From contig CM119371.1 in the NCBI GenBank assembly GCA_051294905.1, positions 20,152,001 through 20,216,000 of the forward strand: DNA of 64,000 nucleotides. Direction: 5' to 3'. This document shows positions 12,905 through 60,448 of the stretch, piece after piece (the first letter of the stretch is position 1; every line of letters starts with the position of its first letter). Source of the DNA: Botryllus schlosseri. Lineage: Eukaryota. Under the pieces are notes generated by a model, which saw only the letters and a program-made list of their open reading frames with translations, did not search any database and had not been told where the DNA came from. The position numbers and the translations under genes were made by a program.

Positions 12905-12940
12905 ATTTTATTAACTGCTATTGACACAATCGACTCTGGA

Positions 12941-16583: not shown

Positions 16584-16616
16584 AAGCTAGTCCCTATTTT
16601 TCTTGGTGGGGGTGAA

Positions 16617-16835
16617 TGTGGTGATTGTTGTGATTGTATAAGTGCTGATTACTGTAATTAGTTTACTTTGCTCTGTTCATTCCTTTCGTACCTCAGTTGC
16701 TTATATCTGTGTTGTCGAGTGCATGTCCTAGTTCCGTGAAGTTGATTGTAGCTGAATTTCAGTTAATAAAAACCTAGAAAGCTGTCAAGCAGTTTCGTCT
16801 TCGTCTAGCTACGCTTTCCTCGAAAGGTCACCACA
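16617..16835 (+). repeat. 3' LTR
   Basis: Identical to the 5' LTR, preceded by a polypurine tract. Confidence 0.97.
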
Positions 16836-17835
16836 CTTCTCACTATAGATCAAATAGGAAAGGACTCCAACCTGATCGAAGTCAAAACCTCATTATTTGG
16901 TGTCAAACCTTACGGAGCACGAGCAGTGATATCCGGTGTTCCGATGGATATCACAGAAGAAAAGATCTTGAAAGGGTTATTTGAAATTGGCGTCAATTTC
17001 GTTAAACGGCTAAAGCGCAAAGTAGATGGAAAATATGAGAGCAGCCTCTCGATTTTGTTATGTTTCACATCTGAGACATTCCCTGACTACGTGCATTTTT
17101 CATACCTACGGTTCCGTACCAAACCTTATAACCCGCCACCGCTGAGATGTTTTGGATGCAATAGATATGGCCACACAAAAGAGAACTGTCGTGGGAAACA
17201 ATGCTGTTCAAAATGTGGGGGTCGTGATCACGAGGTTGATAAGTGTACCAAAGATTTATGTTGCATTGATTGTAAACAACCGCACAGTGCTGCTTATGGC
17301 GGGTGTCCGGTGTACAAAGAACAGGCGAAATTACAAATCATAAAATAACGTTCCAAGGTTACTCACTCCGAAGCTAAATCAATACTCAATTCTGAAACAT
17401 CCGAAACACAAGCTACGCGTCTTTACAGTGAAGCGGCGCAGGATAGCGCAACGCGTGTCATCAATCAGCAACGATCAACAATCAACAACCCAAGTCACCG
17501 AGCCACCATCAGGAAGATTCCGCTACAAACAACCTCTAATCACATAAACAAAGACATTGAAAGCAACCGCCCAAACAATCATCCTGATTTGGAACAAAAT
17601 AATCAATCTTCGTTAGCGTATATTGATCCGATCCATCTTATCGCACTACTGGCTGAAATAGTGAAGCTTACATTGGCGGCCTGCAAATCAGACACGGAGT
17701 GTGATGTATACAATATAGTATCCAAAGTTTCTTTGAAATATCTCGGTCGACAGGCAGATGTTGTCACGATGAGAAACATTTTCGTACCCTTCCATGATAT
17801 CAATGACACCAAACCGATGACAAATCCCACAAACG

Positions 17836-19620
17836 ATGGATAATATAGGACTAAACTTTTTACAGTGGAATTGTAGAGGATTATATAGGAAGCATCACGA
17901 ACTAAAACACCTTCTCACGACTCTGGAACGGGCTCCAGATGCGATAATTCTCCAGGAAACACACCTTATCGAAAAATACTCTCCGAAATTTCCAGGATAT
18001 CACTGTCACAGAAAGGACAAATCCCTTCATTCCGGTGGATTGACGATCTTTATTAAATCTTCACATAACTCCAGCATCGAAGCAGTTGCTACAACTGACA
18101 TCGAAGTACTTTGTGTGAAGCTTCATGGACTATCATTGTACAATGTGTACATCCAACCCGACTGCCCTTTACCCGACAGTGATGCGAGCATTTTCGAGAC
18201 GTTACCATCAAAATCCATCGTCTTTGGCGACTTCAATGCACATCATTGGTCGTGGAGTTACCAAACGAACCAACGAGGAACTAAACTTTTTAATGTCCTC
18301 GATCACGCAAACTTAGTCATGTTGAACGCTTCAACTCCAACCCATATCAATATCGCGAGCAATGCTGTCAATCGTTCTTCGTTGCTAGATTTAAAACTCG
18401 CTACTCAAGATATAGCCGCGAGATGCCAAACTGAAATATCTTCGTCGCTGCTAGAAAGTGACCATTTCGTAGTATTCACGAAGTATATGACAAACTCGGC
18501 GATATCTTATTTTTATCGACCACCATCGTGGTCTCTCAAGAAAGCAAATTGGAAGATGTTTTTCTCGAATTGCAGATGAAATGATCGATTTGTCCGATCA
18601 ACGAGAGGTGGAGTCTGCAAATACTATTCTAACAAAATGCATAAAGACAGCAGCGAATCGATCAATACCAAAGATAAAGAATATGGACAAGAAATCTGTT
18701 TCTTGGTGGAGTCCCGAATGTGAGAGAATGATTCGGAGGAAAAGAGCAGCATATTTACGAATGAAGCGCACATTTGATATAATAGACGTTATAAACTTCA
18801 AAAAGGCCAGGTCCGCATGCAGGAGAACTATACTCGAAGCATAACGTCTTTGCCGGGAGTCTTTCTGTTCTTCGCTGAATAATAAATCACGTTTAAATCG
18901 CGTATGGCGGGTTATTCGTAGCAACGCTGGTACAACAGCGCATCAGCAAATTCCTGATATCCGAGTTAATGGAATAGATCACACCGAAGACACGTCAAAA
19001 GCTGAAATAATAGGCGAGCACTTCGCTACCATAAGCAGATCCGATAACTACGCTTCAAATTTCCTCCTTTCCAAGTGTCAACGTGACCAGCATTTACATC
19101 GTGTCTACCTTTCAATGTGAATCTGGAAGATCCAATCAATTTGCCGTTTCAGATGTCGGAACTTAGGGAGGCACTACAGAGTCGGAAAATCTCTTCTCCT
19201 GGGCATGATTCCATAAATTATCAAATGCTGCAAAATCTTTCGGCGTCAGCCCAGACCGAACTTCTTAAGCTATATAACATTTCATTGAGAGATGGAAGGG
19301 CGGAATCCTACAAATACAGTTTTGACAAGGCATGAAGCTAAGCAAGTCATATTGAAATATTGCAAGCAAATTTGGAACCAACATTACCTCGAAGAAGTTA
19401 AAGGCTCTCATTTCAAACTTTTTCGTGAATCTCTTCATCATAGTACACCACCTCTTGAAAATCGCATTAGTGACCGAATATTATTTCGATTGCGCTCAGG
19501 TCATTGTGGACTGAACGCACACTTGTTTAAGATTGGAATCGCGCCTTCACCACATTGTATATAGCTCCTGCAATGAACCTGAGACGGATGAGCACTTTAT
19601 AATGAACTGCCCATCGCACG
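17836..19620 (+). pseudogene. LINE ORF2: AP endonuclease, start of RT, C-terminal zinc finger; RT core missing
   Basis: WNCRG, LQET, GDFNAH and SDH motifs. SPGHDSINYQML...YN (RT N-terminus) joins directly at ~19295 to C-terminal sequence. Frameshifts and stops are present. Confidence 0.88.
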
Positions 19621-32595: not shown

Positions 32596-33663
32596 CTACA
32601 CGGGAATATCATCCAGGTTCGCGTTTAAAATTATATCTTTAACAACGTCAAATACAACTCGAATATTTTTCGTGTCCGTCGCGCATGTCGCGTGATGATA
32701 TATAGCCCCATAATGTTCTGTTCGTGATTGTATAAATTTATCACGAATGAAATTTCGGGCATGCGGCACGCTTCTTCGCTCTCCCATATAGTCAGGGAAA
32801 TAGTCTGCGAGATCTGTCACCATAATTTTCTCCTCAAACAGATCTTTTTTGTTTAGAAACAATATCACTGAAGTGTTCCTGAAGTATTGATGTCCAATGA
32901 TTGTCTCGAAAAGGGCTATGCTTTCGGCCAGGCGGTTAACATGTTGAGACTCCGACAGTACCTGATCGTATTCACTTAACGCTGCTAGAAACAATATCGA
33001 AGTCACGTCCTCAAAGCAATGAATCCATTTCCGCCTCTCCGATCTTTGGCCCCCAACATCTATCATTCTGAAAATAACAGAATTAAGTTTAAAAGTGTAT
33101 TCGTATATTCCCGTGGTCGGTACTCTGACACGTAAGATATCTTGCAGCGTCGGTATATAATCAACTGTCCTTATCCTATCAAGGTCGTTGAGGTAATATG
33201 CTGCTGAGTCTGACAGTTGATATTCATTCCTTCGGCCATAGCATTCCTGCATTCCTTGATCATTCCACAACGAGTGTATCGCTTCTACGTGGTGAGCAAA
33301 CTGATCATGTGTTCGAACATCGCGTGTATCCAGAGCGACCAATACATTTGCATGCGAGACATTGTCTGGGTCCGCGTATCTAATCTGCAGAGTGGACATA
33401 GCCTGTATCAGATTTTCAACGGCGGCGTAAATGTCGGAATGAATCAAATGTGTAAATTCACAGCGCTCGGTATCACTGTATCCTTTCCCATGAATGATGC
33501 GCATTTGTTTGACAAATGTACTTTTTCCACTCTCTCCAGTACCTAGCATAAGTAGTTTAAGTTGTCTTCTGGCTTCATTTTTCGTATCCCGTAATTCATT
33601 TTCAATCCTTGAGTTTATCCGTCTCCTCTTCTTTTGTTCTTGCGTTAGACAGCAGATATTCAT
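32596..33663 (-). CDS. GNAQ: Heterotrimeric G protein alpha subunit, Gq class, intronless
   Basis: 355 aa; [46 protein letters not shown]-terminal CC palmitoylation motif. The symbol denotes the Gq family, not proven orthology. Confidence 0.95.
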
Positions 33664-33908
33664 TCTATTCCAGAATATCTACTAGGCGTTTCGATTGGTC
33701 ACGTTTATATCTGCCACATGAATATGTTTTAAAGATAGGTGTGATCGCTTGAACTGTTAGCCTATACGCTGTCTCAACTGCACAATGAAACCATTATATG
33801 CTGTGATGTTGCATCAGGCAACCCAATCGCCAAAGGCGCTAGTCAGAACTTACTTAATAAATCAATAGGCCTAACACAGGTCGCACGCGTTTTAGTGACA
33901 GTTTATGC

Positions 33909-39792: not shown

Positions 39793-41695
39793 CAGTGCTT
39801 TTCAACCTGTGTGACGGTTCGCACTTGTGCGAATGAAAAAAATCGAATTGCGAATGACGAAGGTAGTGCGAATGGTGCGAATGAAAATCCGGATCAAGTG
39901 CGAACGAAAATCGGGATTATTTGTTAATTTTTTGTCGTAGAATAATTCATATAAACCTATTAGGAAAATTGACTGTCTGTGTAACTTTTATAGTTGCGAC
40001 GCAATTGTAAAAACCTAATACGACGCAGCACTAATCGTAGCTCTTATAGGTTTAGCGAATTAATATATGCGCACTATAATTATTACGTAACCAGAAGCCT
40101 GGTTTGCAATCTGGTGTAGTGGCAGACATAAAGTATATCAGCCCGTCTGGGCCTGCGACAGGCTGAAAAAATGACGTCAAATTAACTCTCTGCTTTCATT
40201 CGCTAAACAATCGTCATATTTTCGTATTACCTGTTCGAATAGCGCGAGGCACGAGGATAGTAGTAAATACCATAATTACAGACTCACGTTTGCAAGTTAC
40301 TGTAACGTAAATTTTTACCCGTTCAAGGGTTATTAAAGTCTGGACCGCAAATGGTATAATTGTGGATCGACACCTTGCCAGAGCTATCTGTTGATATGTG
40401 TGTAATATTTGTTGAATTTATTGCAAAATACTGCTATAGTTTTCACATATACAATGTCACTGTGTTGTGTTGTGCGAGACACGCAGAAAATATGGCTTTA
40501 TCACTAGAATTTATGATACGAATTGTCCGACTGTTTTTTCTCGAAAACATGGTCGAAGACCGTTGGGATGAACTAGTGTAGGGGTGGGCAACGAGCGAGT
40601 TCAGGTCTATAAGGCTCATTCATTTCGAGGCTGACCCCTTCTGCGTCGGGCACATGAATACGTAAAGTTTTGGCCAACAAACCGCTGATAAAATGCGGTG
40701 CCAAAAACATAAGCGGCGACAAAACCTTAGTCTAAAGATGACCGATGCTAGATGGCCAAGCCTTTCGAGATGGCTTGGTATGCTCCGTTGTCGGCACGGA
40801 ATAGTCCCGTTCTAGCAATCTGAGTAGACGCAGTAGTACAACTGCGACACGCAGAGGACTTTAATTTGCCCTAATTTGAAATTGCGTGCGTCGGACGTGT
40901 TTTGAGAGCTATGTTGGGTAGAATTGTGGTGCGCGCGATCTGTATGTCATACATGCCCGTAAAATCATAGCATACAACCATAACATTAAAATGAATTCCT
41001 TTTCATGGGTTAGGCTAGGGTCGCGAGTTGCCACAAAACTCGGATTTTGGTGGTAGTCCAAAAGCTGCTTTACCGTTATTATACTGTTATGAATTCTCAA
41101 GTTAGATTGAGCTAAAGAGTCGAACACACAGTGGCACAGTATCATGAGTTTATTTTTTCTTCTCATATACTCGCGAGACAGAATTTGGAGCAACTTATGA
41201 CGTACAGAGCTCTAATGTGCCTACTCTCTTTCATCGATTTTCATCGTTTGTTCCAAGACATAAGGCCAAATCCTCAACACAAACATGTGGGTTTTTCATT
41301 CTTTCGACAAACTGGAGCCTCCGGGGCCTTTGTGTCCGCTCTCAAAAACGATTTCTGCCAACAAGCATTTTTCACTCGTGAAAAATACGCTGCATTTTGG
41401 ATATGAGTGTTGAATAGATTTCAAGGCCTGAGAGACGTTCTTGTACAAAACCCAACAACATTGTTTGGTCGAGAAGGGTTTTAGTGATTAGTTGAAAGCA
41501 AAACGAGCGATTGCCTTTTTAATGACACACCTGATAGCTTAAGCTACATAGTTGCCAATTTATTGCACATCTGTAAAAAATGTTGTTAAGTATCGTCATC
41601 TTCTTTTTGTATCACAATTTTCGATTGGTTTGTGCGAATGAAATTTATTCTACAAAAAAAATGCAAATGGAACTCAAAAAGGTTTAAAAGCACTG
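39793..41695 (+). mobile_element. Decayed hAT (Buster-like) element
   Basis: CAGTGCTTTTCAACC...GGTTTAAAAGCACTG; TSD TTCAAACG/TTCTAACG; eroded transposase-like remnant near 41450 (PTT..VEKGFS). Confidence 0.75.
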
Positions 41696-43535
41696 TTCTA
41701 ACGGAATGATGAGTTGGTGTCAGTAGTAAGGATAAGGAATTTTATTGCCCGCCAATCCCAGAAGGCCACGTCGCCTTAATTGCCACGCCTACATTGCCAC
41801 ATCATCCGCCCATTGCCGCACCTATAGGACGCCCCCTTGCCACATCATCCACCCATTGCCGCACCTAGAATTAGGCGACTGCAATGTTTTGTGAATTTCA
41901 ATACCGATTTTCCATCTGTATTTAGCAATATGTATTGAATACCTTTGCGATTTTGAGCGCTGCGACTTGATAATATCAATCCCTACGCTTCTGATGTATG
42001 ATTTTTTGTGATAAGGACCTTGGTAACATTCAGAGTGTGCAACGATTGTTTGGATATACATTATAGCAATTCCCTCACTAAACTATAGGCGGTTATATTA
42101 CTCTATTGGTTAGAGATAACTCATCCGTCCATATTTTTAAACTTGATTTTATGTATACAAGTTACGGTCTCTGCAGGCTCCACATTTTACGACTTATTTT
42201 CATTAGACGCAGGCGAGCGATTCTCAAGTTCGGAGCTACGGAAACAAATCACTCGCATGTGCACGTTTCGAAGTCGTAACAGCTTAGTAGCATATACGCG
42301 AATCCCAAGGCGAAAATAATCGAACTAACAATAGCCGCAGGCGTGCGATTCGCAGGGCTTTATTTATACAAACACTTTCGATACCTGTACGCGAACCCCA
42401 GCGTCATAACGATAAGGTCTAATTAGCGCGTTCTGAAACCGTAAATTTAGTCAACATCACTGAGATAGCCCTGATTTAAAGATGATGATCGAGTGAGACG
42501 ATAGCACTCACCAAGGTTATACTATCTTAACCTTAAACTACTCTCTACTTCACAAAATATAAAGTTATAAAAGTAAATAATCCAGTGATCTATTTTCAAT
42601 CACTATATTTTTCATTAATCAAAACTAAGAACTGTTAGTAGGCAAACCCTAGGACCGATGCAAGACGGCGTGAAACAGCGCTTTCGCTCGATTCTTGTAG
42701 TGACCACATTTCATACGATTCAGTCCTTTTCATGTCACTAGAATAAGGGTGATTAAACCGACAGTGAAACGCCGCCAGCGTCTTATAACGTAATAATGTA
42801 AGCTGCGTCGGGTGCTGCTATAATGTTAGGAGCGAATATAGTAGAAAGTCCACGTCTGGACACCTGTATGCAGATGCGCATACTACCGTAGTAAAACGCA
42901 TAACAGAATGCACGCAAAATTCGATATTACTTTGTGATGATTTTGATGTTGTTCCATACCGATTGGGAAGATAGGACTCCTAATTTCCTAACTAACTACA
43001 TAATCCCTAGTAACATAGTCGGACGCATAACGGAATTTACGCAAAATCGGTATTGCTCTGCGATAATTTTGACCACTACGATTCGAAATATTGTTAACTA
43101 ACCTATGTTTTCGACATAAGATAAGCGTGTAGTGTACAAATTTCGATGTTGCGCAAATACCACAGACATAAGATAAGCGTGTAGTGTACAAATTTCGATG
43201 TTGCGCAAATACCACGATTTTACATCGCATTATTCGAATCGACTACGTACATTGTATAGGTGTGAGGTGAAATAAAACGGATTTACGCAAAAGTTCGACA
43301 CTAAAACGCCGACGGTGTCTTATAAAGTAATAATGTAAGCTGCGATGGATGCTGCTATATAATGCTAGTAGCGAATATAGTAGAAAGTCCGCGTCTGGAT
43401 GAATGTAAGCAGGTGCGCTTAGTAACGTAGTAAATCGCATAACAGAATTTACATAAATTGCTACTTCTACCAACCCTACTCCCGCGGTCGGCCTCGAGTC
43501 CAAATTTTAGCGCTCTTACGAAAAAGATCATAAAA

Positions 43536-43615
43536 TCCGAACTGTGGGACTTGAATCAACACCTAATATATCGTTGCAAGCAGGAAACAGCTGCCTAACC
43601 CACTGAGCCACTTGG
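43536..43615 (-). mobile_element. tRNA-derived SINE-like head inside the piggyBac remnant
   Basis: Minus strand has an A-box-like TGGCTCAGTGG and a B-box-like GATTCAAGTCC. Confidence 0.5.
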
Positions 43616-44212
43616 ATTGATCAGTTGAGAGAGCTGATACCGCTATTGGAAGAAGTGTTTCAGGTTTTGAAAAATTAGAAGAGAATTTTGTTACTGAATT
43701 TCCCACTACGTCATACACAGACGCTCTCGGGGTGAAATCATCGCCTGACTGATTTCACAGCAATATCACCTTTCTAAAATGTCCTGAGTGAGCTTCATAC
43801 CGTAACACAGTCGAGTGTGAAGGCCGTTTATGTAACACGTGCTCAACGTCGCGCATCTTGCAAACTAGGCTCACACACGCGGCGCGCGTTGTTTTGATAG
43901 TCTGGCCGTCACAATATCATTGTATGTAATCGGTAATCGCCTATCAATCAGTTGTACGGTTTATTGCTATGCGTTGAAATAAACCTTGCTCTTTGAACAA
44001 CAACAGATGAATCCATGGTGGTTGAATTGACAGGTAGTGATAACCTGCAACACCTACCTACATGCTTCCTCAGACACAGCTATGCCGTCAATATGGTTTA
44101 TTGTGTATCGCATGCGCATCGCAGCATATATATTCAAGTAAAACGATATATTTACGCTTGGCACAATACAATACATTTCAATCACAAGTGGAATATTGAC
44201 AAACTACACTGC

Positions 44213-44566
44213 TCAAGGATAGAATGAAGGCTTCGTATGGAAGGATGTGAAACATTGACGTCTTATATTGTTACAGAGATAGACCCCGCATACACTGCAA
44301 TAAAATTTTGTCAATTTTGTTGCCAGAGTGACACCAACTTTTTTCGCCTCTTGTAGACGAACATAGCAATAGTGACACCTTCTTCTCATAGCTGCTGTGC
44401 ATATCGGCATGTGCGGTAAAGACATATCGAGCCTCATTTCATTAGGACCTATCTGTGGTGGCAGGCTCCTTCTGGGTCTGATTGCTTGTGATTGGTGCGA
44501 TGTAACCAGGGCAACTATGTGTATTCGACTTGATTGATACCAGCTGCACGCGTAATTAGGCTGCAA
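44213..44566 (-). pseudogene. piggyBac transposase C-terminal cysteine-rich domain remnant
   Basis: HMP...RRRCHYC...TKFYCSVCGVYLC...CFTSFH matches the piggyBac/PGBD CRD pattern. The catalytic DDD domain is absent. Confidence 0.8.
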
Positions 44567-46488
44567 CAGGCCGATCGCAGGCTAGTTGGGTGTAATCAAC
44601 AACTATTCGTGGAAAACCGCGATGTCTACAACGGCGATACAAGATTTATGCCACGGGCGTTCATTCTCGTGAACGGCACAGATTTTTCTGAACTTCACAA
44701 GCATTTTAATCGAACAATGCGATAGTGAAATATGTTATCTATAGCTCATTGTATGCGCATTGACAATACCTATTCATAAATTGCAATTGTGACCCTTTAT
44801 GGCCACTAAAACGCAAGATATCTTCATATGATTGATGCGTGTTTGTAAAAAACTGACCATGGATCCTATAGGATCCACCCGCGGCCAAAGGGTAATGGAT
44901 TTATCTGAGATCATTGCTTTACTTAATCTCTCCAAAATGTGCATTATACAAGTACGTCACCATCGAAACCATCTACCTATAACTAGCTGGCAGTATAATT
45001 GTAGCAAATAGGCTACTCGAGTACTAATTTTAAAGTAACTTAAATATCTAAATGAGCTCTGAGTCGTTGTTATCTCGCATCTTGTACTTGTATTCGCGCT
45101 TTACCTTTACACGTCGTTTTTGTATAATGGATACTAATTTTATTAAAAATACACAAAAAGCACGAAAAATACATTTCATCCCGGAACGGAGCAAGAAAAT
45201 GCGTATGAATTTTGTAAAGTAGATATTATATTCTATTATGTGTATTTAGGGCTAATGCAACATCACTATATTAGCGACAGGCCTGATTTGAACACACTAA
45301 CTTTGCAAATTAAACTTATCACCCACCACGAACACTCAATGAAGAGCACCCTGGAGCACCCTCATAAATGCTCCACAATTCGTGACGTATAATATACTGA
45401 GCATATAATAAGCTGACAAAACTGACACTTGAGTACTCCGAAATGTACAAGTACTTTACCTTTACACGACGTTTTTTTGTAAAATGAATACTAATGGTAC
45501 GCGAATGATCATAGACTAAGCTTGCTTTCAGAGTTGGAAACTAAATGCATACGAAAATTTAACTATGTTTTCCCCTCACGCATCAAATGTAGGCATACTC
45601 AAGTGTTTATGAGGCGGCGAATAGTTCGAAGGCTGTTGGTATGCAAGGACGTCACATAGTATTGTGGAGTTTTCTGTAAACTATAATTCAGTGATCTATT
45701 TTCAATCACTATACTTTTATTAATCGAAACTAAGTACTGTTAGTAGGCAAACCCTAGAAAAGTATCCTCTGATAAAAGCAGGAGTAATTCGTTATCTGTG
45801 AAATATATAGATGGCGCGCAATATGAGCGGTGTTACGAATATAACAGAATTACCATGCTAATATGTGACTCCTCACCTTGAAACTAGGTACGTAGTTGTA
45901 GGACATTGTGATTATGTAGAATACCAAATTTCCTCGTACATTTCATGATGGAACTTTAAAACTAACGCGGCTCTACAACGACTCTTTGCGTACATCTGTT
46001 TTGCGGGAGCGTATATAGCACGTACCCATACATACCCAACTTTAATAACGGAATTACCATGCTTAACATTGAATCCAAACTCTAAACTTGATATGAACAC
46101 ACTAATTTCGCAAATTAAACTTATCACCCACCACGAACACTCAATGAAGAGCACCCTGGAGCACCCTCGTAAATGCTCCACAATTCGTGACGTATAATAT
46201 ACTGAGCATATAATAAGCTGACAAAACTGATACTTGAGTACTCCGAAATGTACAAGTACTTTACCTTTACACGACGTTTTTTGTAAAATGAATACTAATG
46301 GTACGCGAATGATCATAGACTAAGCTTGCTTTCAGAGTTGGAAACTAAATGCATACGAAAATTTAACTATGTTTTCCCCTCACGCATCAAATTAGTTGTA
46401 TCGAGTTATCGAATGATTTTTTTTCTTCACATCAAAATAACTAGAGTGTGTAACTACATTAAAAACGTATCTAAATGAGCTCCAGGTC

Positions 46489-47637
46489 ATTGTGATTATG
46501 CGGCATACCAAATTTCATCACACATTTCATGATGGATCAACTTTAAAACTAACGCAGTTCTATAGCAACTTTTGCCTAAATCTGTTTTCGGTAGCATGTA
46601 CATATCCATATTCAGCTTTAATAACAGAATTACCATGCTAATATGTGACTCCTCACCTTGAAACTTGGTACGTAGTTGTAGGACATTGTGATTATGCAGA
46701 ATACCAAATTTCTTCACGCATTTCATAATGGAACAACTTTAAAACTAACGCGGCTCTACATCGACTTTTTGCGTTCATCTGTTTTGCGGGAGCGTATAGC
46801 ACGTACCTATACATAGTCAACTTTAATAACGGAATTACCATGCTTAACATTGAATCCCAACTCTAAACTTGATTCGTAGTTGTAGGACATTGTGGCAATG
46901 CACCATGCTAAATTTCATCGCACATCTAATGATGGATCACCTTTAAAACTAACGCAGTCGAATACCGACTTTTAAGCATATCTGTTTTGCGTGCACATAG
47001 CATATACCTATGCATAGTCAATTTTAATAGCAGAATTACCGTGTTAAACATTGAATTCCCACCTTGAAAGTTGGTACGCGATTATAGGACACTATAACAA
47101 TGCACCATACCAAATCCCATCACACATTTCATGATGGAACAACTTTAAAACTAACGCGGCTCTACATCGACTTTTTGCGTATATCTGTTTTGCGGGGGCG
47201 TATAGCACGTACTCATACATAGCTAACTTTAATAACGGAATTACCATGCCTAACATTGAATCCCAACTCTAAACTTGATACGTAGTTGTAGGACATTATG
47301 GCAATGAACCATGCTAAACTTCATCACACATCTAATGATGGAACACGTTTGAAACTATCGCAGTCGAATACCGACTTTTACACATATCTGTTTTTCGTGA
47401 ACATAGCATATACCCATACATAGTCAATTTTAATAACAGAATTAGCATGCTAAACCTTAAATTCTCACCTTGAACGTTGGTACCCAGTTGTAGGACATAA
47501 TAACAATGCACCATACCAAATTTCGTCAGGCATTTCATGATGTAACACTTTCAAAACCAACGCAGTTCTATACAGGCTTTTGGCTAAATCTGTTTTTCCG
47601 TAGCGTAGCACGTACCTAGACATAGTCAACTTTAATA
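46489..47637. repeat. ~200-bp tandem repeat array (~5.5 units, 406-bp dimeric higher order); mirror copy at ~54177-55325
   Basis: Unit starts at ~46489, 46685, 46889, 47091, 47295, 47497. Alternate units share diagnostic motifs (CGCGGCTCTACATCGAC vs CGCAGTCGAATACCGAC). A further partial unit lies at ~45841-46093. Confidence 0.9.
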
Positions 47638-50600
47638 TCAATACATGTTTATCGTAAGTCCTACGCAGTCATGATATCCGGCCGAGTTTGACTTTTAGAA
47701 AACATTATACCGACATCGCGACATCTTACAAAATTGAAACCGCGGTGACTGCTTGAGAGACCTACCAGTGATATCGCGGTAATCTAGTTACTTCCACAAA
47801 ATAGTATGTATTCAACTTACTTTCCACAAATCTAACGCGCAAAACAATTTACTTTGCTAACGAAAAGTGCTGAGTCATCATATCATTATCCATGCAACAA
47901 TACACCTAAAACATACTATCGTACAAAATGGTCGCTAACCTCTTTGTGCACCAGCTGTAAATCTCACAAGCAACAAGTTTCAAGATTCCAGTTATTGAAA
48001 AAATGTTAAAGTGTTTCTCCTGCGCCAAGTCGTCATGTTGACGAAAGCGTATATTGTAATATCATGATCGATTTGCATTCGTTGGTCACAAACTGTCACT
48101 ACTCTAAATAATTATTTTTCATTCAAACACAACAGCATACTTGTCGCCATTCGTTTTCATTAAGCACGAGTTCAATAAACTTACTTACTACGACATGAAT
48201 TGGTATTTTTATGTTGTGTAAATAGGTAATAATTAATTTTAGTAACACTATACCAACATCATCGAGTTGTGCGAATAGATTTACATGTGGTGTTATGGTT
48301 TTAATCGAAGTACACTGCACGATCTAATGTAGAGTCATCTCTATTGTATAGCAACTCGGTAATCGAAATGCATGCATTAACATTTAAACAGCGATCGTGT
48401 TTCGTCACGCGAAAAATATGTTCACTACTGCGATACTCTGCACAGGGCATGCAAATCCTTTTCACACTCGTAATAGTATACCAACGGCTACCGGCGACAA
48501 CGTTTAACAATACCAACGACACTAAACATACGATACCTACCCAATCTGCAAATTGTTTCGATTTATTCTGTCCGTTTCAATTTAAGATAAGGAAGCCCAT
48601 TTCACTCAATGTATCGATGCCTACGGTACTCTACAAAATTTTCTGATTAATTCTCCCTATGCTTATTTATCACAAGAAAGATGATTTGACACCTAAAGTA
48701 CGAAATACTTTTTCCCTTGAGCTAAGCCGCAGCGCCTGGAGTGGAATTTTACGGGGTATGTGGACTCATTTCGTAGGGCTCTATACCATAGGAGCATACT
48801 TTACGCTCCAATTCGATTCCCACACATTCCATATAATTACTAACAGAACCATTGAGTACCAGCCTTGACATTTTCCGTAGTACTAGATGGCATGTATACA
48901 ATTTCACGACATCCGACATTACGACGAAGACTATCAAAATATCGAAAGAAGCCCTCTATTCTTTTCTGAAATAATCAAGGTTTTATCAGGACTTCCCTTC
49001 ATATAAACTCCAGCAGAATCACTAATAACCTCTCAAGTGTACTCAATTTACTCTAATTTGATACTCATGTACCAAATCCCTATTTTCCGCAAGTATGATA
49101 GAGGCTATCGCTCGATACTCAACGATTCGTAATTTTGCTGGAATTCAAGTACAATTAGTTTAAAGTAGTCCGAGGTTACGTTTGTATCACCTTGACAAGT
49201 GCTATTATCAAAAAATGCTTTTGCTAAACTCTTACACTTTCACTAAACTTCTACACTGAATCTTGTAAAGTAGATAGAAAAGGAAAACTATTAACATAAG
49301 GTAAGTGAGAAGCACGCAAATTTCGATTGCATACAAATGCCAAAAACTGCGCTAACTTCCAGAGTTGTTAAGTATAGAAGTACTCGTACGTCTTGAGAAT
49401 ACCCAAGTAGTTTTTTTGCCTACGTGTACCAAATACTCTCAAGTCCTTATGATATTGGAGTACATCAACTTCATGATAGCTACAGTATTAAACAGAAATA
49501 GACCTAGAGTACTAACGTTTTTGTGCAGTGAGAGTTCGCAAATTATCGAAGTATTTTAGTTATTTTTATTGCGATAAGTCATTCTGCAGCGCAAAAATGC
49601 GTCGTAGGATATAGATGAAACTAGCACCACTCATCAAGACCGCTGATAACAGTACATTTCAACATTTAGTTGCAGTAAATTTCGAGTAAAGTACAAGAAG
49701 TGATGATTTCCGAGTGAGTTAAAAAGTAAGTATTGCAGGTATAGTTTACCTGAAAACCGAATACTCTGAAATAGAAGTAGATGCAGTGTAAATAGTTAAT
49801 CACTTGATTAAGTATAGCGCAAGCAGATAAAACCTATACTTGAGTACTACAAAATACACGAGTACTTCGCTATCGACTCCCTCCACGTAATAAAAAACTA
49901 CGGTTTAAGACTGCTTTTACCGATACTCGTCAGTTTCCGTTTTAGATAGAATTCGGAAACCAAATAATTTCATAAACATAAGCTAATTAAATGAATTTAC
50001 TCGAATGTACTATGCCGCGCTGATAAGATTAATTATAATATACTTATCATGTTAGAGCGATTTTTCTAGCGTATAAAATCTTTAAAATGTAGTAAGCAGG
50101 CCAATATGAAGATATTCGTTGAGCTGAATAAACATAAAAAATACTCTAGACTACTTTATCGGTACTTTACAGTTTCAGTTTTAGATAAAATTTGTCCCTT
50201 TCACTCCTCGCTATCTAAACATGTTTAGAATATATTATTTGCGATGATACGAACCCGTAAAGTACTCAAGTAGCTTTTCGTTGGATATAGATGAAACTGA
50301 CACCACTCACCAAGACCACTGGCCCACTGACAAAAAGTACATTTCAACATTTTAGTAACAGTAAAGTCCTACTAAAGTATAAGAAGTCATGATTTCCGAG
50401 TGAGTTAAAAAGTAAGTATTGAAGGTATAGTTTGCTCGAAAACCGAAAAACTCTGAAATAGAAGTAGATGCAGTGTAAATAGTCAATCACTTCATTTAGT
50501 ATAGCGCAAGCATGCCAAACCTATACTTGAGTACTCCAAAATATACAAGTACTCCCTCCACGTAAAAAGCGACTGGGGTTTAGACTACTTTATCGGTACT

Positions 50601-50928
50601 TGACAGTTTCAGTTTTAGTTAAAATTTGGTGAGACTTTAAATTTTAAAGTAGTTTGAGCTTACGTGTGTATCACCTTGACAAGTATCATTATCAGACATG
50701 AAAATGATACTATCACCTAATACAGAAGTTAACACACGTCAATGTGCTTCGGAATTCACGAGAAATTGCTTACTAAGAGAAGTATATTCTTGTATACACA
50801 ATAGTGGAGAGAATCTTTAAAATGTAGTAAGCAGGCCGATGGGTATTCATTGAGTTGTATAAGCATAAAAAACATTCCCGCGCGCTCCTAAACCTAACAC
50901 TTCCTACCCTACCACCTAATACTAAGAC

Positions 50929-53900
50929 GCGCGCGGGAATGTTTTTTATGCTTATACAACTCAATGAATACCCATCGGCCTGCTTACTACATTTTAAAGA
51001 TTCTCTCCACTATTGTGTATACAAGAATATACTTCTCTTAGTAAGCAATTTCTCGTGAATTCCGAAGCACATTGACGTGTGTTAACTTCTGTATTAGGTG
51101 ATAGTATCATTTTCATGTCTGATAATGATACTTGTCAAGGTGATACACACGTAAGCTCAAACTACTTTAAAATTTAAAGTCTCACCAAATTTTATCTGAA
51201 ACTGAAACTGTCAAGTACCGATAAAGTAGTCTAAACCCTAGTCGCTTTTTACGTGGAGGGAGTACTTGTATATTTTGGAGTACTCAAGTATAGGTTTGGC
51301 ATGCTTGCGCTATACTAAATGAAGTGATTGACTATTTACACTGCATCTACTTCTATTTCAGAGTTTTTCGGTTTTCGAGCAAACTATACCTTCAATACTT
51401 ACTTTTTAACTCACTCGGAAATCATGACTTCTTGTACTTTAGTAGGACTTTACTGTTACTAAAATGTTGAAATGTACTTTTTGTCAGTGGGCCAGTGGTC
51501 TTGGTGAGTGGTGTCAGTTTCATCTATATCCAACGAAAAGCTACTTGAGTACTTTACGGGTTCGTATCATCGCAAATAATATATTCTAAACATGTTTAGA
51601 TAGCGAGGAGTGAAAGGGACAAATTTTATCTAAAACTGAAACTGTAAAGTACCGATAAAGTAGTCTAGAGTATTTTTTATGTTTATTCAGCTCAACGAAT
51701 ATCTTCATATTGGCCTGCTTACTACATTTTAAAGATTTTATACGCTAGAAAAATCGCTCTAACATGATAAGTATATTATAATTAATCTTATCAGCGCGGC
51801 ATAGTACATTCGAGTAAATTCATTTAATTAGCTTATGTTTATGAAATTATTTGGTTTCCGAATTCTATCTAAAACGGAAACTGACGAGTATCGGTAAAAT
51901 CAGTCTTAAACCGTAGTTTTTTATTACGTGGAGGGAGTCGATAGCGAAGTACTCGTGTATTTTGTAGTACTCAAGTATAGGTTTTATCTGCTTGCGCTAT
52001 ACTTAATCAAGTGATTAACTATTTACACTGCATCTACTTCTATTTCAGAGTATTCGGTTTTCAGGTAAACTATACCTGCAATACTTACTTTTTAACTCAC
52101 TCGGAAATCATCACTTCTTGTACTTTACTCGAAATTTACTGCAACTAAATGTTGAAATGTACTGTTATCAGCGGTCTTGATGAGTGGTGCTAGTTTCATC
52201 TATATCCTACGACGCATTTTTGCGCTGCAGAATGACTTATCGCAATAAAAATAACTAAAATACTTCGATAATTTGCGAACTCTCACTGCACAAAAACGTT
52301 AGTACTCTAGGTCTATTTCTGTTTAATACTGTAGCTATCATGAAGTTGATGTACTCCAATATCATAAGGATTTGAGAGTATTTGGTACACGTAGGCAAAA
52401 AAACTACTTGGGTATTCTCAAGACGTACGAGTACTTCTATACTTAACAACTCTGGAAGTTAGCGCAGTTTTTGGCATTTGTATGCAATCGAAATTTGCGT
52501 GCTTCTCACTTACCTTATGTTAATAGTTTTCCTTTTCTATCTACTTTACAAGATTCAGTGTAGAAGTTTAGTGAAAGTGTAAGAGTTTAGCAAAAGCATT
52601 TTTTGATAATAGCACTTGTCAAGGTGATACAAACGTAACCTCGGACTACTTTAAACTAATTGTACTTGAATTCCAGCAAAATTACGAATCGTTGAGTATC
52701 GAGCGATAGCCTCTATCATACTTGCGGAAAATAGGGATTTGGTACATGAGTATCAAATTAGAGTAAATTGAGTACACTTGAGAGGTTATTAGTGATTCTG
52801 CTGGAGTTTATATGAAGGGAAGTCCTGATAAAACCTTGATTATTTCAGAAAAGAATAGAGGGCTTCTTTCGATATTTTGATAGTCTTCGTCGTAATGTCG
52901 GATGTCGTGAAATTGTATACATGCCATCTAGTACTACGGAAAATGTCAAGGCTGGTACTCAATGGTTCTGTTAGTAATTATATGGAATGTGTGGGAATCG
53001 AATTGGAGCGTAAAGTATGCTCCTATGGTATAGAGCCCTACGAAATGAGTCCACATACCCCGTAAAATTCCACTCCAGGCGCTGCGGCTTAGCTCAAGGG
53101 AAAAAGTATTTCGTACTTTAGGTGTCAAATCATCTTTCTTGTGATAAATAAGCATAGGGAGAATTAATCAGAAAATTTTGTAGAGTACCGTAGGCATCGA
53201 TACATTGAGTGAAATGGGCTTCCTTATCTTAAATTGAAACGGACAGAATAAATCGAAACAATTTGCAGATTGGGTAGGTATCGTATGTTTAGTGTCGTTG
53301 GTATTGTTAAACGTTGTCGCCGGTAGCCGTTGGTATACTATTACGAGTGTGAAAAGGATTTGCATGCCCTGTGCAGAGTATCGCAGTAGTGAACATATTT
53401 TTCGCGTGACGAAACACGATCGCTGTTTAAATGTTAATGCATGCATTTCGATTACCGAGTTGCTATACAATAGAGATGACTCTACATTAGATCGTGCAGT
53501 GTACTTCGATTAAAACCATAACACCACATGTAAATCTATTCGCACAACTCGATGATGTTGGTATAGTGTTACTAAAATTAATTATTACCTATTTACACAA
53601 CATAAAAATACCAATTCATGTCGTAGTAAGTAAGTTTATTGAACTCGTGCTTAATGAAAACGAATGGCGACAAGTATGCTGTTGTGTTTGAGTGAAAAAT
53701 AATTATTTAGAGTAGTGACAGTTTGTGACCAACGAATGCAAATCGATCATGATATTACAATATACGCTTTCGTCAACATAACGACTTGGCGCAGGAGAAA
53801 CACTTTAACATTTTTTCAATAACTGGAATCTTGAAACTTGTTGCTTGTGAGATTTACAGCTGGTGCACAAAGAGGTTAGCGACCATTTTGTACGATAGTA

Positions 53901-56900
53901 TGTTTTAGGTGTATTGTTGCATGGATAATGATATGATGACTCAGCACTTTTCGTTAGCAAAGTAAATTGTTTTGCGCGTTAGATTTGTGGAAAGTAAGTT
54001 GAATACATACTATTTTGTGGAAGTAACTAGATTACCGCGATATCACTGGTAGGTCTCTCAAGCAGTCACCGCGGTTTCAATTTTGTAAGATGTCGCGATG
54101 TCGGTATAATGTTTTCTAAAAGTCAAACTCGGCCGGATATCATGACTGCGTAGGACTTACGATAAACATGTATTGATATTAAAGTTGACTATGTCTAGGT
54201 ACGTGCTACGCTACGGAAAAACAGATTTAGCCAAAAGCCTGTATAGAACTGCGTTGGTTTTGAAAGTGTTACATCATGAAATGCCTGACGAAATTTGGTA
54301 TGGTGCATTGTTATTATGTCCTACAACTGGGTACCAACGTTCAAGGTGAGAATTTAAGGTTTAGCATGCTAATTCTGTTATTAAAATTGACTATGTATGG
54401 GTATATGCTATGTTCACGAAAAACAGATATGTGTAAAAGTCGGTATTCGACTGCGATAGTTTCAAACGTGTTCCATCATTAGATGTGTGATGAAGTTTAG
54501 CATGGTTCATTGCCATAATGTCCTACAACTACGTATCAAGTTTAGAGTTGGGATTCAATGTTAGGCATGGTAATTCCGTTATTAAAGTTAGCTATGTATG
54601 AGTACGTGCTATACGCCCCCGCAAAACAGATATACGCAAAAAGTCGATGTAGAGCCGCGTTTGTTTTAAAGTTGTTCCATCATGAAATGTGTGATGGGAT
54701 TTGGTATGGTGCATTGTTATAGTGTCCTATAATCGCGTACCAACTTTCAAGGTGGGAATTCAATGTTTAACACGGTAATTCTGCTATTAAAATTGACTAT
54801 GCATAGGTATATGCTATGTGCACGCAAAACAGATATGCTTAAAAGTCGGTATTCGACTGCGTTAGTTTTAAAGGTGATCCATCATTAGATGTGCGATGAA
54901 ATTTAGCATGGTGCATTGCCACAATGTCCTACAACTACGAATCAAGTTTAGAGTTGGGATTCAATGTTAAGCATGGTAATTCCGTTATTAAAGTTGACTA
55001 TGTATAGGTACGTGCTATACGCTCCCGCAAAACAGATGAACGCAAAAAGTCGATGTAGAGCCGCGTTAGTTTTAAAGTTGTTCCATTATGAAATGCGTGA
55101 AGAAATTTGGTATTCTGCATAATCACAATGTCCTACAACTACGTACCAAGTTTCAAGGTGAGGAGTCACATATTAGCATGGTAATTCTGTTATTAAAGCT
55201 GACTATGGATATGTACATGCTACCGAAAACAGATTTAGGCAAAAGTTGCTATAGAACTGCGTTAGTTTTAAAGTTGATCCATCATGAAATGTGTGATGAA
55301 ATTTGGTATGCCGCATAATCACAATGACCTGGAGCTCATTTAGATACGTTTTTAATGTAGTTACACACTCTAGTTATTTTGATGTGAAGAAAAAAAATCA
55401 TTCGATAACTCGATACAACTAATTTGATGCGTGAGGGGAAAACATAGTTAAATTTTCGTATGCATTTAGTTTCCAACTCTGAAAGCAAGCTTAGTCTATG
55501 ATCATTCGCGTACCATTAGTATTCATTTTACAAAAAACGTCGTGTAAAGGTAAAGTACTTGTACATTTCGGAGTACTCAAGTATCAGTTTTGTCAGCTTA
55601 TTATATGCTCAGTATATTATACGTCACGAATTGTGGAGCATTTACGAGGGTGCTCCAGGGTGCTCTTCATTGAGTGTTCGTGGTGGGTGATAAGTTTAAT
55701 TTGCGAAATTAGTGTGTTCATATCAAGTTTAGAGTTTGGATTCAATGTTAAGCATGGTAATTCCGTTATTAAAGTTGGGTATGTATGGGTACGTGCTATA
55801 TACGCTCCCGCAAAACAGATGTACGCAAAGAGTCGTTGTAGAGCCGCGTTAGTTTTAAAGTTCCATCATGAAATGTACGAGGAAATTTGGTATTCTACAT
55901 AATCACAATGTCCTACAACTACGTACCTAGTTTCAAGGTGAGGAGTCACATATTAGCATGGTAATTCTGTTATATTCGTAACACCGCTCATATTGCGCGC
56001 CATCTATATATTTCACAGATAACGAATTACTCCTGCTTTTATCAGAGGATACTTTTCTAGGGTTTGCCTACTAACAGTACTTAGTTTCGATTAATAAAAG
56101 TATAGTGATTGAAAATAGATCACTGAATTATAGTTTACAGAAAACTCCACAATACTATGTGACGTCCTTGCATACCAACAGCCTTCGAACTATTCGCCGC
56201 CTCATAAACACTTGAGTATGCCTACATTTGATGCGTGAGGGGAAAACATAGTTAAATTTTCGTATGCATTTAGTTTCCAACTCTGAAAGCAAGCTTAGTC
56301 TATGATCATTCGCGTACCATTAGTATTCATTTTACAAAAAAACGTCGTGTAAAGGTAAAGTACTTGTACATTTCGGAGTACTCAAGTGTCAGTTTTGTCA
56401 GCTTATTATATGCTCAGTATATTATACGTCACGAATTGTGGAGCATTTATGAGGGTGCTCCAGGGTGCTCTTCATTGAGTGTTCGTGGTGGGTGATAAGT
56501 TTAATTTGCAAAGTTAGTGTGTTCAAATCAGGCCTGTCGCTAATATAGTGATGTTGCATTAGCCCTAAATACACATAATAGAATATAATATCTACTTTAC
56601 AAAATTCATACGCATTTTCTTGCTCCGTTCCGGGATGAAATGTATTTTTCGTGCTTTTTGTGTATTTTTAATAAAATTAGTATCCATTATACAAAAACGA
56701 CGTGTAAAGGTAAAGCGCGAATACAAGTACAAGATGCGAGATAACAACGACTCAGAGCTCATTTAGATATTTAAGTTACTTTAAAATTAGTACTCGAGTA
56801 GCCTATTTGCTACAATTATACTGCCAGCTAGTTATAGGTAGATGGTTTCGATGGTGACGTACTTGTATAATGCACATTTTGGAGAGATTAAGTAAAGCAA

Positions 56901-58677
56901 TGATCTCAGATAAATCCATTAAATTAAGGTAGAAGTAGCAATTTATGTAAATTCTGTTATGCGATTTACTACGTTACTAAGCGCACCTGCTTACATTCAT
57001 CCAGACGCGGACTTTCTACTATATTCGCTACTAGCATTATATAGCAGCATCCATCGCAGCTTACATTATTACTTTATAAGACACCGTCGGCGTTTTAGTG
57101 TCGAACTTTTGCGTAAATCCGTTTTATTTCACCTCACACCTATACAATGTACGTAGTCGATTCGAATAATGCGATGTAAAATCGTGGTATTTGCGCAACA
57201 TCGAAATTTGTACACTACACGCTTATCTTATGTCTGTGGTATTTGCGCAACATCGAAATTTGTACACTACACGCTTATCTTATGTCGAAAACATAGGTTA
57301 GTTAACAATATTTCGAATCGTAGTGGTCAAAATTATCGCAGAGCAATACCGATTTTGCGTAAATTCCGTTATGCGTCCGACTATGTTACTAGGGATTATG
57401 TAGTTAGTTAGGAAATTAGGAGTCCTATCTTCCCAATCGGTATGGAACAACATCAAAATCATCACAAAGTAATATCGAATTTTGCGTGCATTCTGTTATG
57501 CGTTTTACTACGGTAGTATGCGCATCTGCATACAGGTGTCCAGACGTGGACTTTCTACTATATTCGCTCCTAACATTATAGCAGCACCCGACGCAGCTTA
57601 CATTATTACGTTATAAGACGCTGGCGGCGTTTCACTGTCGGTTTAATCACCCTTATTCTAGTGACATGAAAAGGACTGAATCGTATGAAATGTGGTCACT
57701 ACAAGAATCGAGCGAAAGCGCTGTTTCACGCCGTCTTGCATCGGTCCTAGGGTTTGCCTACTAACAGTTCTTAGTTTTGATTAATGAAAAATATAGTGAT
57801 TGAAAATAGATCACTGGATTATTTACTTTTATAACTTTATATTTTGTGAAGTAGAGAGTAGTTTAAGGTTAAGATAGTATAACCTTGGTGAGTGCTATCG
57901 TCTCACTCGATCATCATCTTTAAATCAGGGCTATCTCAGTGATGTTGACTAAATTTACGGTTTCAGAACGCGCTAATTAGACCTTATCGTTATGACGCTG
58001 GGGTTCGCGTACAGGTATCGAAAGTGTTTGTATAAATAAAGCCCTGCGAATCGCACGCCTGCGGCTATTGTTAGTTCGATTATTTTCGCCTTGGGATTAG
58101 CGTATATGCTACTAAGCTGTTACGACTTCGAAACGTGCACATGCGAGTGATTTGTTTCCGTAGCTCCGAACTTGAGAATCGCTCGCCTGCGTCTAATGAA
58201 AATAAGTCGTAAAATGTGGAGCCTGCAGAGACCGTAACTTGTATACATAAAATCAAGTTTAAAAATATGGACGGATGAGTTATCTCTAACCAATAGAGTA
58301 ATATAACCGCCTATAGTTTAGTGAGGGAATTGCTATAATGTATATCCAAACAATCGTTGCACACTCTGAATGTTACCAAGGTCCTTATCACAAAAAATCA
58401 TACATCAGAAGCGTAGGGATTGATATTATCAAGTCGCAGCGCTCAAAATCGCAAAGGTATTCAATACATATTGCTAAATACACATGGAAAATCGGTATTG
58501 AAATTCACAAAACATTGCAGTCGCCTAATTCTAGGTGCGGCAATGGGTGGATGATGTGGCAAGGGGGCGTCCTATAGGTGCGGCAATGGGCGGATGATGT
58601 GGCAATGTAGGCGTGGCAATTAAGGCGACGTGGCCTTCTGGGATTGGCGGGCAATAAAATTCCTTATCCTTACTACT
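50929..58677 (-). repeat. Right arm of giant inverted repeat (7,749 bp)
   Basis: Reverse complement of the left arm, lacking 43472-44892. Confidence 0.97.
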
Positions 58678-58831
58678 GGTGTCATTTAAATTTTGAAATC
58701 CGTCAAATAAGATGCGTGAATTTTTGATGCACTGCTTGACTGTTCTTGTTGTTGTTGGATGCAATTTGTTCAGCGATTTTAACTCAATGGTTTTGTTCGC
58801 TAGACTGTAATATATATTCATTGTATTTGGC

Positions 58832-60448
58832 TATGACAAATCTATTTATTTCGATCCGAGACAACATGCATCATCGCAGCAGATGAAACAAGACGGTGTT
58901 TGCCATGATTTCATAATTCAAGTCGAGAATGATGAATATCACACTCATCAAAAGACATTGTCTGATGCTTCGGATTATTTCAGAGCGATGTTCAGGCACG
59001 ATACAAAAGAGAGTCGCGAAGAGCGGGTGATTTTGAGAGGTGTGGATTCTGAATGTGTACAAAACTGCATCGAATTCATGTATGATGGGGAATATGAAAT
59101 TCCGAAAGGAAAGATGTACGACTTTCTCCACGTCGCAGTCATGATGCTGCTAGATGACGTTAAAATGACATTATGTGACGTTATGACTGAGTCGTTGACT
59201 GTCAGTAATTACATCTCCACGATGCATGCAGCCGACATGTATGGGCTTGATGACCTGTCAGCATAATGCAGATCTTACTTCCGACGGAACGTCTCGGAAA
59301 TTTACAACCAACCGGGATTTGAAAACACCGAGATGTCCGACCTTCGTGACCTTCTGCGGGCGAAAGAATCAGGAATATGTGAGGAGGACAAGTTGACCTT
59401 CACGCTCATGTGGATTGAGAAGAATCCACGAATGAATTATATGCTGCGTCAATGTATTGATATGGTCAATTTGGGTCATGTCTCTACGGCATTTCTGCAA
59501 AATCTATTAGATAGCCATCCGATCATCAGCAACGACATTGATTTATACAAGCTGATTAATGGCCATCTTATGTCCCATCACATGACAATGGTCCGCAGAG
59601 ATGAGTACTTTAACAATACCAAAAGAATGATACTGTTTGACTATGACGCGAATTGTATCCGGTCATTGCATTCAATAACAGGAAAAATCTCAAAGTTCCA
59701 TGCTGCTAAATTTCGGCATTTCGGAGATTTTTCCGCAATATTACTTGAGTCCCACATTTACATTTTGTGTAAAGATAAATCCGTACACCGAATCAATTTT
59801 CGAGAACATAATTCAAAATGGGAGAAAATGAAAGATATGATATCCGGACACGGGATATGGCCCCCCTCTGTTGCTTTGCTGGGGTCAATATTTGTTATTG
59901 GAGGAAGCATGTCTGGATAGTCTAATATTGTTGATGGATTCAACCCGTCTTCAAACCGATGGTTTCAACTAAAGAACAAACCCACAGCGGTTTCCGATCC
60001 GAGTCTCGTATCACTGAATGGCTCAGTGTATTGTGTCGGAGGTAAAGGACCAAATTGTGTCGCAACTTCCTCATTCTGCAAATTTACTCCGTCCTCGTCA
60101 GAGTGGGTTGACCTCAAACCAATGAGATATCCGAAGTGGGGCAGTGGTGTTGTCGCGTTTGGCCAGAAGATATTCGCGATCGGCGGCTACACCTTGTGGA
60201 AGAAATTGACAAATGTAGAGTGTTATGATGTCACGTCGTCTCAGTGGACTTCACTGTCGCATATGAATAAATGTAATGGTTGGAATACCGCCTTGCGCGT
60301 TGGCAGCTGGATCTTTACCGTACCAGTGTTTAAGTCTATGTCCTCTGATCCAATTGAGAAGTATCATTCACTAAACGACATATGGCAGAGTATGGAACCA
60401 CGTGTAGATCAATGTAGAACTTGCGCAGCCATGCTCGTATCGCAGTAG
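58832..60448 (+). pseudogene. Kelch-like (BTB-BACK-Kelch, KLHL family) pseudogene, intronless
   Basis: BTB (HQKTLSDASDYFRAMF...IEFMYDG), BACK and Kelch repeats (FVIGG, YCVGG, FAIGG, VECYD...W). Three ORFs in one frame are separated by TAA 59264-59266 and TAG 59918-59920. The start is uncertain. Confidence 0.88.

Follow-up and report, generated by a model that had tools for sequence, protein, structure and literature searches.

What stands at the centre of a near-perfect palindrome in an animal chromosome, and does that centre do anything? The locus analysed here, a stretch of 64,000 nucleotides (hereafter the window), contains two long arms that close on a short GC clamp around a 43-nt loop with a telomere-like look. 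The preliminary description took this apex for a defined hairpin end or turnaround site rather than a random template-switch scar, and proposed telomere-protein binding, a G-quadruplex or a resolution site as its possible role.

A 17.0-kb insertion (41722-58677) has the apex at its centre, see Table 1. Without the transposon nested in its left arm the element measures 15,541 bp (~15.5 kb), within the range of 15-25 kb given for Polintons (PMC6431247). Its ends, AGTAGT…ACTACT, correspond to the (AGT)2//(ACT)2 termini of Polinton/Maverick elements, and a perfect 6-bp target-site duplication, GGTGTC, flanks it. Mavericks are described as having (AGT)2//(ACT)2 or (AG)3//(CT)3 termini and a 6-bp target duplication (PMC8097293). 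The identity between the arms is 99.8%, with 10 mismatches in 5993 positions (44893-50885 against 50929-56921) and two in the 1751 positions of the outer block, i.e., 12 arm differences altogether. The longest stop-to-stop frame in the arms has 135 aa, no Pfam family was found in three arm frames or in the frame of the insert, and by frames and Pfam the genes for pPolB, integrase, ATPase, protease and capsid are absent from the element. It is a non-autonomous derivative or satellite of Polinton/Maverick in the form of a gene-less palindrome, and not an autonomous member. An Rfam scan over 41000-59000 gave one sub-threshold match, in the nested insert, and none at the apex.

Table 1. Positions of the element, its arms and its apex in the window.
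Feature	Position	Strand	Remarks
Target-site duplication, left	41716..41721	+	GGTGTC
Outer left arm	41722..43471	+	starts AGTAGT, Polinton/Maverick end motif
Nested insertion, left arm only	43474..44892	.	1.4 kb, CCCT…AGGG ends
Inner left arm, non-coding	44893..50885	+	diverged internal duplications; 3 arm frames with 0 Pfam families
GC clamp, left half	50877..50885	+	CCCGCGCGC; terminates left arm; 9 bp
Apex loop, single-copy, unstructured, C/A-rich	50886..50928	.	43 nt; loop bin covered in 4/4 runs
Loop segment with arm match	50909..50922	+	14 nt, 13/14 to arm 50710-50723
GC clamp, right half	50929..50937	+	GCGCGCGGG; variant 2 nt shorter in family
Right arm, uninterrupted	50929..58677	-	10/5993 and 2/1751 mismatches against the two left-arm blocks
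Target-site duplication, right	58678..58683	+	GGTGTC

Each arm is a patchwork of internal duplications that differ in age and are far older than the divergence between the arms. The duplicated pairs are 42577-42652/45683-45757 (93%), 45284-45588/46089-46392 (98%) and 49602-49956/50278-50629 (81%). A tandem array of 202/406-bp units (5.6 units) is located at 46484-47640, with its mirror at 54174-55330, and it is this array that causes the GC skew to be mirrored around the apex. The nested insertion (43474-44892) sits in a TTAA-containing site with an imperfect duplication, and we take it to be piggyBac-like. It contains a Cys-rich frame (44213-44581, minus strand) without a Pfam match, which presumably resembles the piggyBac C-terminal domain.

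The whole apex is a stem-loop of 61 bases (50877..50937), and its earlier reading was exact in coordinates and letters, including the one G, the three CCTAA and the two CCTAC of the loop. The composition of the loop (50886-50928) is A15 C17 G1 T10; CCTAA starts at 50887, 50893 and 50915, and CCTAC at 50903 and 50908. On the minus strand this gives three TTAGG and one TAGGG. These words had been called runs, which is an overstatement because the copies are never in tandem. Five CCTA are more than base shuffles predict (P 2.5e-5); P is 7e-4 when repetition of any complex 4-mer is allowed, and 0.0057 for the repetition of CCTA against dinucleotide shuffles. At least three CCTA[AC] per 43 nt occur in just two places in the 64-kb window, one of them the loop. 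The poverty in G is not rare, as there are 14 comparable 43-nt regions in the window, the loop counted. The clamp is one of two all-GC runs of at least 8 nt in the 7,749-nt arm, and the similarity of the arm to an upstream module (50077-50141) breaks off just before it. As single-stranded DNA the loop is predicted to be without structure on both strands (0 kcal/mol). Its 43 nt do not pair with each other and form a non-palindromic centre. Fold-back-primed palindromes are marked by a short inverted repeat that encloses a single-copy spacer, as seen here.

The telomere resemblance of the loop looks superficial. Its G strand has no TTAGGG and no tandem pair of TTAGG or TTAGGG, and none of three known POT1/TRF recognition sequences occurs in the loop, which speaks against the proposed binding of telomere proteins. 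Recruitment of telomerase or of shelterin-type proteins by the loop, or its origin from a telomeric repeat, is highly improbable, even if the three TTAGG, the one TAGGG and an 18-mer that matches (TTAGGG)n at 14/18 positions, the best in the loop, can be quoted in its favour. Resolvase sites have a near-perfectly palindromic centre and a cognate resolvase; with a non-palindromic centre, a loop that does not pair with itself and an element without any gene, the suggested resolution site finds no counterpart here. In CRESS/HUH rolling-circle origins, a GC stem closes a short loop with the nonamer NANTATTAC. The loop matches this circovirus/nanovirus nonamer at 8/9 positions, with a difference at the last base; the match is post hoc, with P 0.006 for that word and P 0.14 for the general consensus. 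The loops of CRESS/HUH origins are far shorter than the 43 nt of the apex. The three-tetrad G-quadruplex pattern (four runs of at least 3 G) is absent from the loop, and the G strand has the two-tetrad pattern GG-T-GG-TA-GGG-TA-GG. The best 25-nt G4Hunter score is 1.08, equalled or exceeded by 39 regions of the window, above 1 and below the value of 1.2 that PMC4770238 gives as a compromise threshold. The G-quadruplex that had been considered is a weak candidate.

Short-read contigs show how general this centre is. Part of 50500-51315 is matched by 20 of 24 public runs, and four runs from four samples (X1, X2, X7 and X12) were mapped on 49480-50979, all as contigs. The loop bin (50880-50929) is covered in all four, in X7 over about 30 of its 50 bases. 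The arm contigs of X2 and X12 terminate precisely at the arm/loop boundary, 50885, which is what a fork of the arm into the two loop ends would produce. For X12, one loop contig with overlaps of ~30 nt predicts a depth of 3.135 and 3.13 is observed. For X1, the deepest run, the loop depth is ~20,500. With every arm near the apex running into the loop, ~18,900 would follow from the depths at 50867 and 50942; all these are summed contig depths, which overlap and do not equal copy number. The depth fits near-full occupancy, so that any other centre on these arms can hardly be common. The centre is therefore family-wide, and not a one-off scar or an assembly artefact. The loop appears to be the centre common to most copies of the family, for which descent and selection are alike possible. 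Coverage in all four runs, the contig ends at 50885 and the depth thus support the defined turnaround of the preliminary description and extend it to the family; for the subfamily examined, neither a different centre in every copy nor a loop that is simply a fragment of an unrelated abundant repeat was found. A copy number calculated from depth, roughly 500 to 1,900, was set aside as too assumption-laden.

Variation around the apex is limited. A clamp variant that lacks two letters at 50928 accounts for 4859/34477 of the depth (14%) in 20 contigs of run X1. At the mirror positions 50867 and 50942, an A/T run is 1 nt shorter in 14% and 18% of the depth. These 1-nt variants are near the share of the 2-nt clamp variant, and possibly they mark one subfamily. 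The loop contains 0 of the 40 variant sites listed, where 1.2 are expected (P 0.29), and no substitution, loose end or joint within the loop is among the rows listed. An unfolded precursor, in which clamp, loop and clamp would be followed by other sequence, was not found, and none of the 24 loose ends listed lies at the clamp; a free hairpin or an unintegrated form of the element was not seen in the contigs either. X7 and X12 are labelled as other organisms but show, at low depth, the same listed variants as X1, and they are therefore taken as traces of DNA from the same organism. The four runs are thus probably from one species and uninformative on conservation between species. The orientation of the loop is definable only against the flanks or against letters specific to one arm, as arm, loop and arm' read from the other strand are the same molecule. 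For this reason, the comparison of flip and flop orientations that had been proposed is ill-posed.

The arms keep being made identical. Of the 40 variant sites listed, 29 show the minority letter in the left arm of the window, and at 26 of these 29 the minority letter is present on both arms, while the right arm has the family letter at the other three. At 50074 and 50666 the copy's own letter has a depth of no more than 66 and 221, respectively, yet at each of the two sites it stands on both arms; a letter present on one arm, at 50619, has a depth of at most 35. Cross-mapping from the diverged duplicates of the arm can inflate the depth of the other letters, but not that of the own letter. 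The arms of this copy hardly differ from each other, even though the copy itself departs from the family majority. As rare changes are found on both arms beneath a common apex, the symmetry has been restored after the founding event. A hairpin intermediate would allow such equalisation, through mismatch repair or re-copying, and gene conversion in the chromosome would do so as well; both fit the data.

The best match of the loop in the window is to its own arm. Loop positions 50909-50922 agree with 50710-50723, ~200 nt away, at 13/14 positions (P 0.007, local shuffles), a score reached by 0/161 tiles outside the element and 0/25 in the remaining arm. This points, post hoc, to a partly local origin of the loop. 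A 12-mer of the loop with two mismatches allowed has three matches in the window against 4.2 expected. The other place in the window with at least three CCTA[AC] per 43 nt is a CCTAAC-rich stretch (5537-5600, minus strand) in unrelated DNA, outside any evident palindrome. It matches the loop at 13/15 positions (P 0.02, local shuffles), a score outside the top eight of the window.

A homologous apex was not found in the viral, metagenome or prokaryote collections searched. In the viral contigs, an 18-mer of the element end had no match; the clamp plus the start of the loop had two, without further likeness to the window. Two clamps separated by 30-60 nt occur at no fewer than (at least) 119 loci of these contigs, and in 0/122 of the matches listed do the arms extend by at least 10 bp; a relaxed clamp with a G-free loop occurs at six loci, 0/6 of them on long arms. 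A 20-mer of the arm matched two loci in metagenomes, each over 21 nt only, which was judged to be chance. An 18-mer of the loop had six matches in prokaryote genomes, with flanks that do not continue like the apex. Literature retrieved with the words of the loop had unrelated titles. A sigma-70 scan over the region was rejected as irrelevant to an animal, and its result was doubled by the palindrome.

The viral contigs contained two other arrangements. Two related phage-like contigs (L058:1001-1068 and L104:301-365) have the 9-bp clamp of the apex, letter for letter, around a diverged, G/T-rich loop of 47-50 nt. It is located just upstream of a gene and followed by a T-rich run, and no Rfam family covers it. 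The architecture is the same as that of the apex, probably by convergence, and it may be an undescribed phage cis element. Three further related phage contigs (L132, L133 and L135) have a CG-dinucleotide palindrome and a CG-run stem with a pyrimidine/C-rich loop, immediately upstream of a 517-aa frame.

We suggest, with a probability of roughly 0.55, that a gene-less palindromic Polinton/Maverick satellite has inherited the apex as its fold-back junction, and that the apex acts as a passive hairpin turn and as a palindrome-stabilising spacer. The element could have arisen from a precursor with one good Polinton end, in which (i) a single-stranded 3' end annealed back via the 9-bp GC-rich inverted repeat and (ii) this annealed end copied the whole arm, thereby creating the second Polinton end. 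Protein-primed strand displacement by helper enzymes would then copy the element, and the strand set free would fold into a 7.7-kb hairpin, with a duplex end that rebuilds the origin and a tip formed by the 43-nt loop closed by the clamp. The standard model of Polinton replication has a single-stranded, racket-like intermediate with protein priming (PMC4196379); the racket would here be collapsed to the hairpin, and a helper polymerase and integrase would act at the two ends. Repair or re-copying of the hairpin, or conversion in the chromosome, would equalise the arms. The role of the loop would be structural, as an unpaired turn and a spacer that makes a large palindrome tolerable to host replication. 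That the words read exactly CCTAA is probably incidental, and in part probably due to local sequence.

Several features of known fold-back events agree with this junction. In repair-deficient yeast, inverted repeats of 5-9 bp around spacers of 3-12 bp prime large palindromes (PMC7999016), and ODIRA junctions are described as retaining the interrupted repeat and its spacer (PMC4689423). As fold-back priming predicts a short, GC-rich inverted repeat, the GC clamp is no proof of a function. Of the earlier contrast between a defined turnaround and a random template-switch scar, the first part stands; the second does not follow from the clamp, since short inverted repeats around a spacer nucleate fold-back palindromes and the clamp is thus compatible with a template-switch origin (PMC7999016). 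A strong GC stem is where a fold-back event should succeed. Replication forks in eukaryotic cells stall at inverted Alus with a spacer of 12 bp, whereas a spacer of 52 bp does not stall them, according to the same source (PMC7999016), and a spacer of 43 nt may therefore let the palindrome survive. However, the periodicity of CCTA is above composition (P 0.0057 in dinucleotide shuffles), which a passive spacer does not need, and the primed fold-backs cited have spacers of 3-12 bp, shorter than 43 nt, and come from repair-deficient yeast (PMC7999016). Gene conversion after insertion also explains the identity of the arms without a hairpin intermediate.

How do other explanations compare with a fold-back junction? 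Near-perfect palindromes with a short loop are a known long-read artefact, from a fold-back read or an adapter. The perfect target duplication, the 12 arm differences and the insertion in one arm make this hardly conceivable here, and the arm/loop junction in the contigs of all four runs, from four samples, effectively refutes it. A cut-and-paste foldback transposon of the FB, Galileo or Mutator type, with the apex as the remnant between giant terminal repeats after an internal deletion, would account for the absence of genes and for the tandem repeats in the arms, a trait of foldback elements. The target duplications of FB and Mutator elements are 9-11 bp; the (AGT)2//(ACT)2 ends, the perfect 6-bp duplication and the 15.5 kb fit Polintons instead, and we consider this origin very unlikely. 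The apex could also be a wholly neutral scar, left when a break or template switch in one founder was patched with short, local, low-complexity sequence, so that neither spacer length nor clamp has any effect. Such a patch would agree with the 13/14 match 200 nt away, with the end of the arm-module similarity at the clamp, with the CCTAAC-rich stretch in unrelated DNA (13/15, P 0.02, though outside the top eight scores of the window) and with a loop in which the listed sites show no significant excess conservation (0/40, P 0.29). Against this, the loop dominates among apex-proximal arms. Further, spacer length strongly affects the stability of palindromes, and neutrality of length is therefore unlikely for arms of 7.7 kb (PMC7999016). 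We regard complete neutrality as improbable.

A further alternative, for which we see a limited chance, is that the apex works in cis as a sequence-specific signal, at which a template switch, nicking or the loading of a protein is programmed, possibly with a two-tetrad G-quadruplex on the G strand, and each copy is rebuilt from one arm. An apex common to the family, near-private alleles on both arms, five CCTA words in the loop and a clamp at a rare all-GC run are what such a signal would leave, and the GG-T-GG-TA-GGG-TA-GG pattern and the 8/9 nonamer match (P 0.006) could be parts of it. However, descent from one founder accounts for the sharing. The G4Hunter score of 1.08, though above 1, is below the compromise threshold of 1.2 (PMC4770238) and is reached by 39 regions of the window, and the nonamer match is post hoc, misses the last base and has P 0.14 for the general consensus. 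The 2-nt deletion in the clamp reaches 14% of the depth, 12 mismatches persist between the arms of this copy, and a similar apex on long arms is absent from the viral contigs (0/122 matches listed; 0/6 loci). In its strongest form, clamp and loop would be a programmed copy-back signal at which the protein-primed polymerase of a helper Polinton, or a host nickase, turns in each cycle; this, too, we hold to be doubtful. If true, an endogenous dsDNA virus would have in the element a satellite dedicated to hairpin replication, protein-primed at one end and with a defined hairpin at the other.

Among known systems, hairpin telomeres and concatemer junctions (poxvirus, N15, Borrelia) have a duplex palindrome as well, the centre of which could be a hairpin tip. 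Their centres are almost fully palindromic and cut by a resolvase, while the element has 43 non-palindromic nt at its centre and encodes no resolvase. Foldback transposons (Drosophila FB, Galileo) have long inverted arms, internal repeats and little or no coding sequence, as the element has, but their ends and duplication length differ. The likeness to Polinton/Maverick is found in the ends, the 6-bp duplication, the size and terminal repeats able to fold the displaced strand (PMC8097293, PMC6431247, PMC4196379). The element differs by having no polymerase, integrase, ATPase, protease or capsid frame and by terminal repeats that make up all but 43 nt of it. Fold-back-primed duplications in yeast and mammalian cells have long arms, a short inverted repeat and a single-copy spacer too (PMC7999016, PMC4689423). 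They are, however, one-off chromosomal events, with spacers of 3-12 bp in the cases with 5-9 bp repeats, whereas the junction of the element is inherited by a mobile family of many copies (PMC7999016). AAV snapback genomes are self-complementary, helper-dependent subgenomes with one kind of end and a single-stranded loop, for which a template switch is proposed; their lengths vary within one virus population and they are resolved by Rep/ITR, while the element has one fixed junction, is integrated and has ends of the protein-primed type (PMC8235507). By analogy, the element would work like an AAV snapback genome transposed to protein-primed ends, without being a member of that class. No palindromic, fold-back or snap-back Polinton is described in the literature covered by title or by the start of the abstract, a scope outside which subscription journals and Repbase lie. 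What is new is a subfamily with a short fixed apex in common, a telomere look that fails the tests, and rare alleles that are symmetric.

The rest of the window contains other repeats and genes. A second, small palindrome (11352-11676) has 156-bp arms, 96% complementary, and a short asymmetric centre. Nested inverted repeats (83-89%) fill 1.9 kb at 8104-10034, possibly an older foldback element. An LTR retrotransposon, labelled Gypsy-type from its motifs, is located at 12686-16838, with 222-bp LTRs (99.5% identity) and with gag and pol as long frames; LINE-like frames come next (16809-18579). An intronless Gq-alpha-like gene (32596-33678, minus strand) has ~60% identity to its closest full-length matches in many animals, and its protein has 61% identity to a 360-aa ascidian protein. 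An intronless BTB-kelch gene (58811-60448, plus strand) with two in-frame stops adjoins the element on the right.

As long as a sequence-specific role is not demonstrated, the apex alone adds only modestly. That Polintons pass through a single-stranded fold-back intermediate is a model, and a gene-less, many-copy palindrome with a fixed junction and repeatedly equalised arms would be a natural record of this intermediate. The intermediate becomes testable from sequence, through the symmetry of new mutations across the arms, the orientation of the loop relative to letters specific to one arm and the substitution rates of loop and arms. The element also illustrates how an animal chromosome can retain many copies of a near-perfect palindrome of 15 kb.
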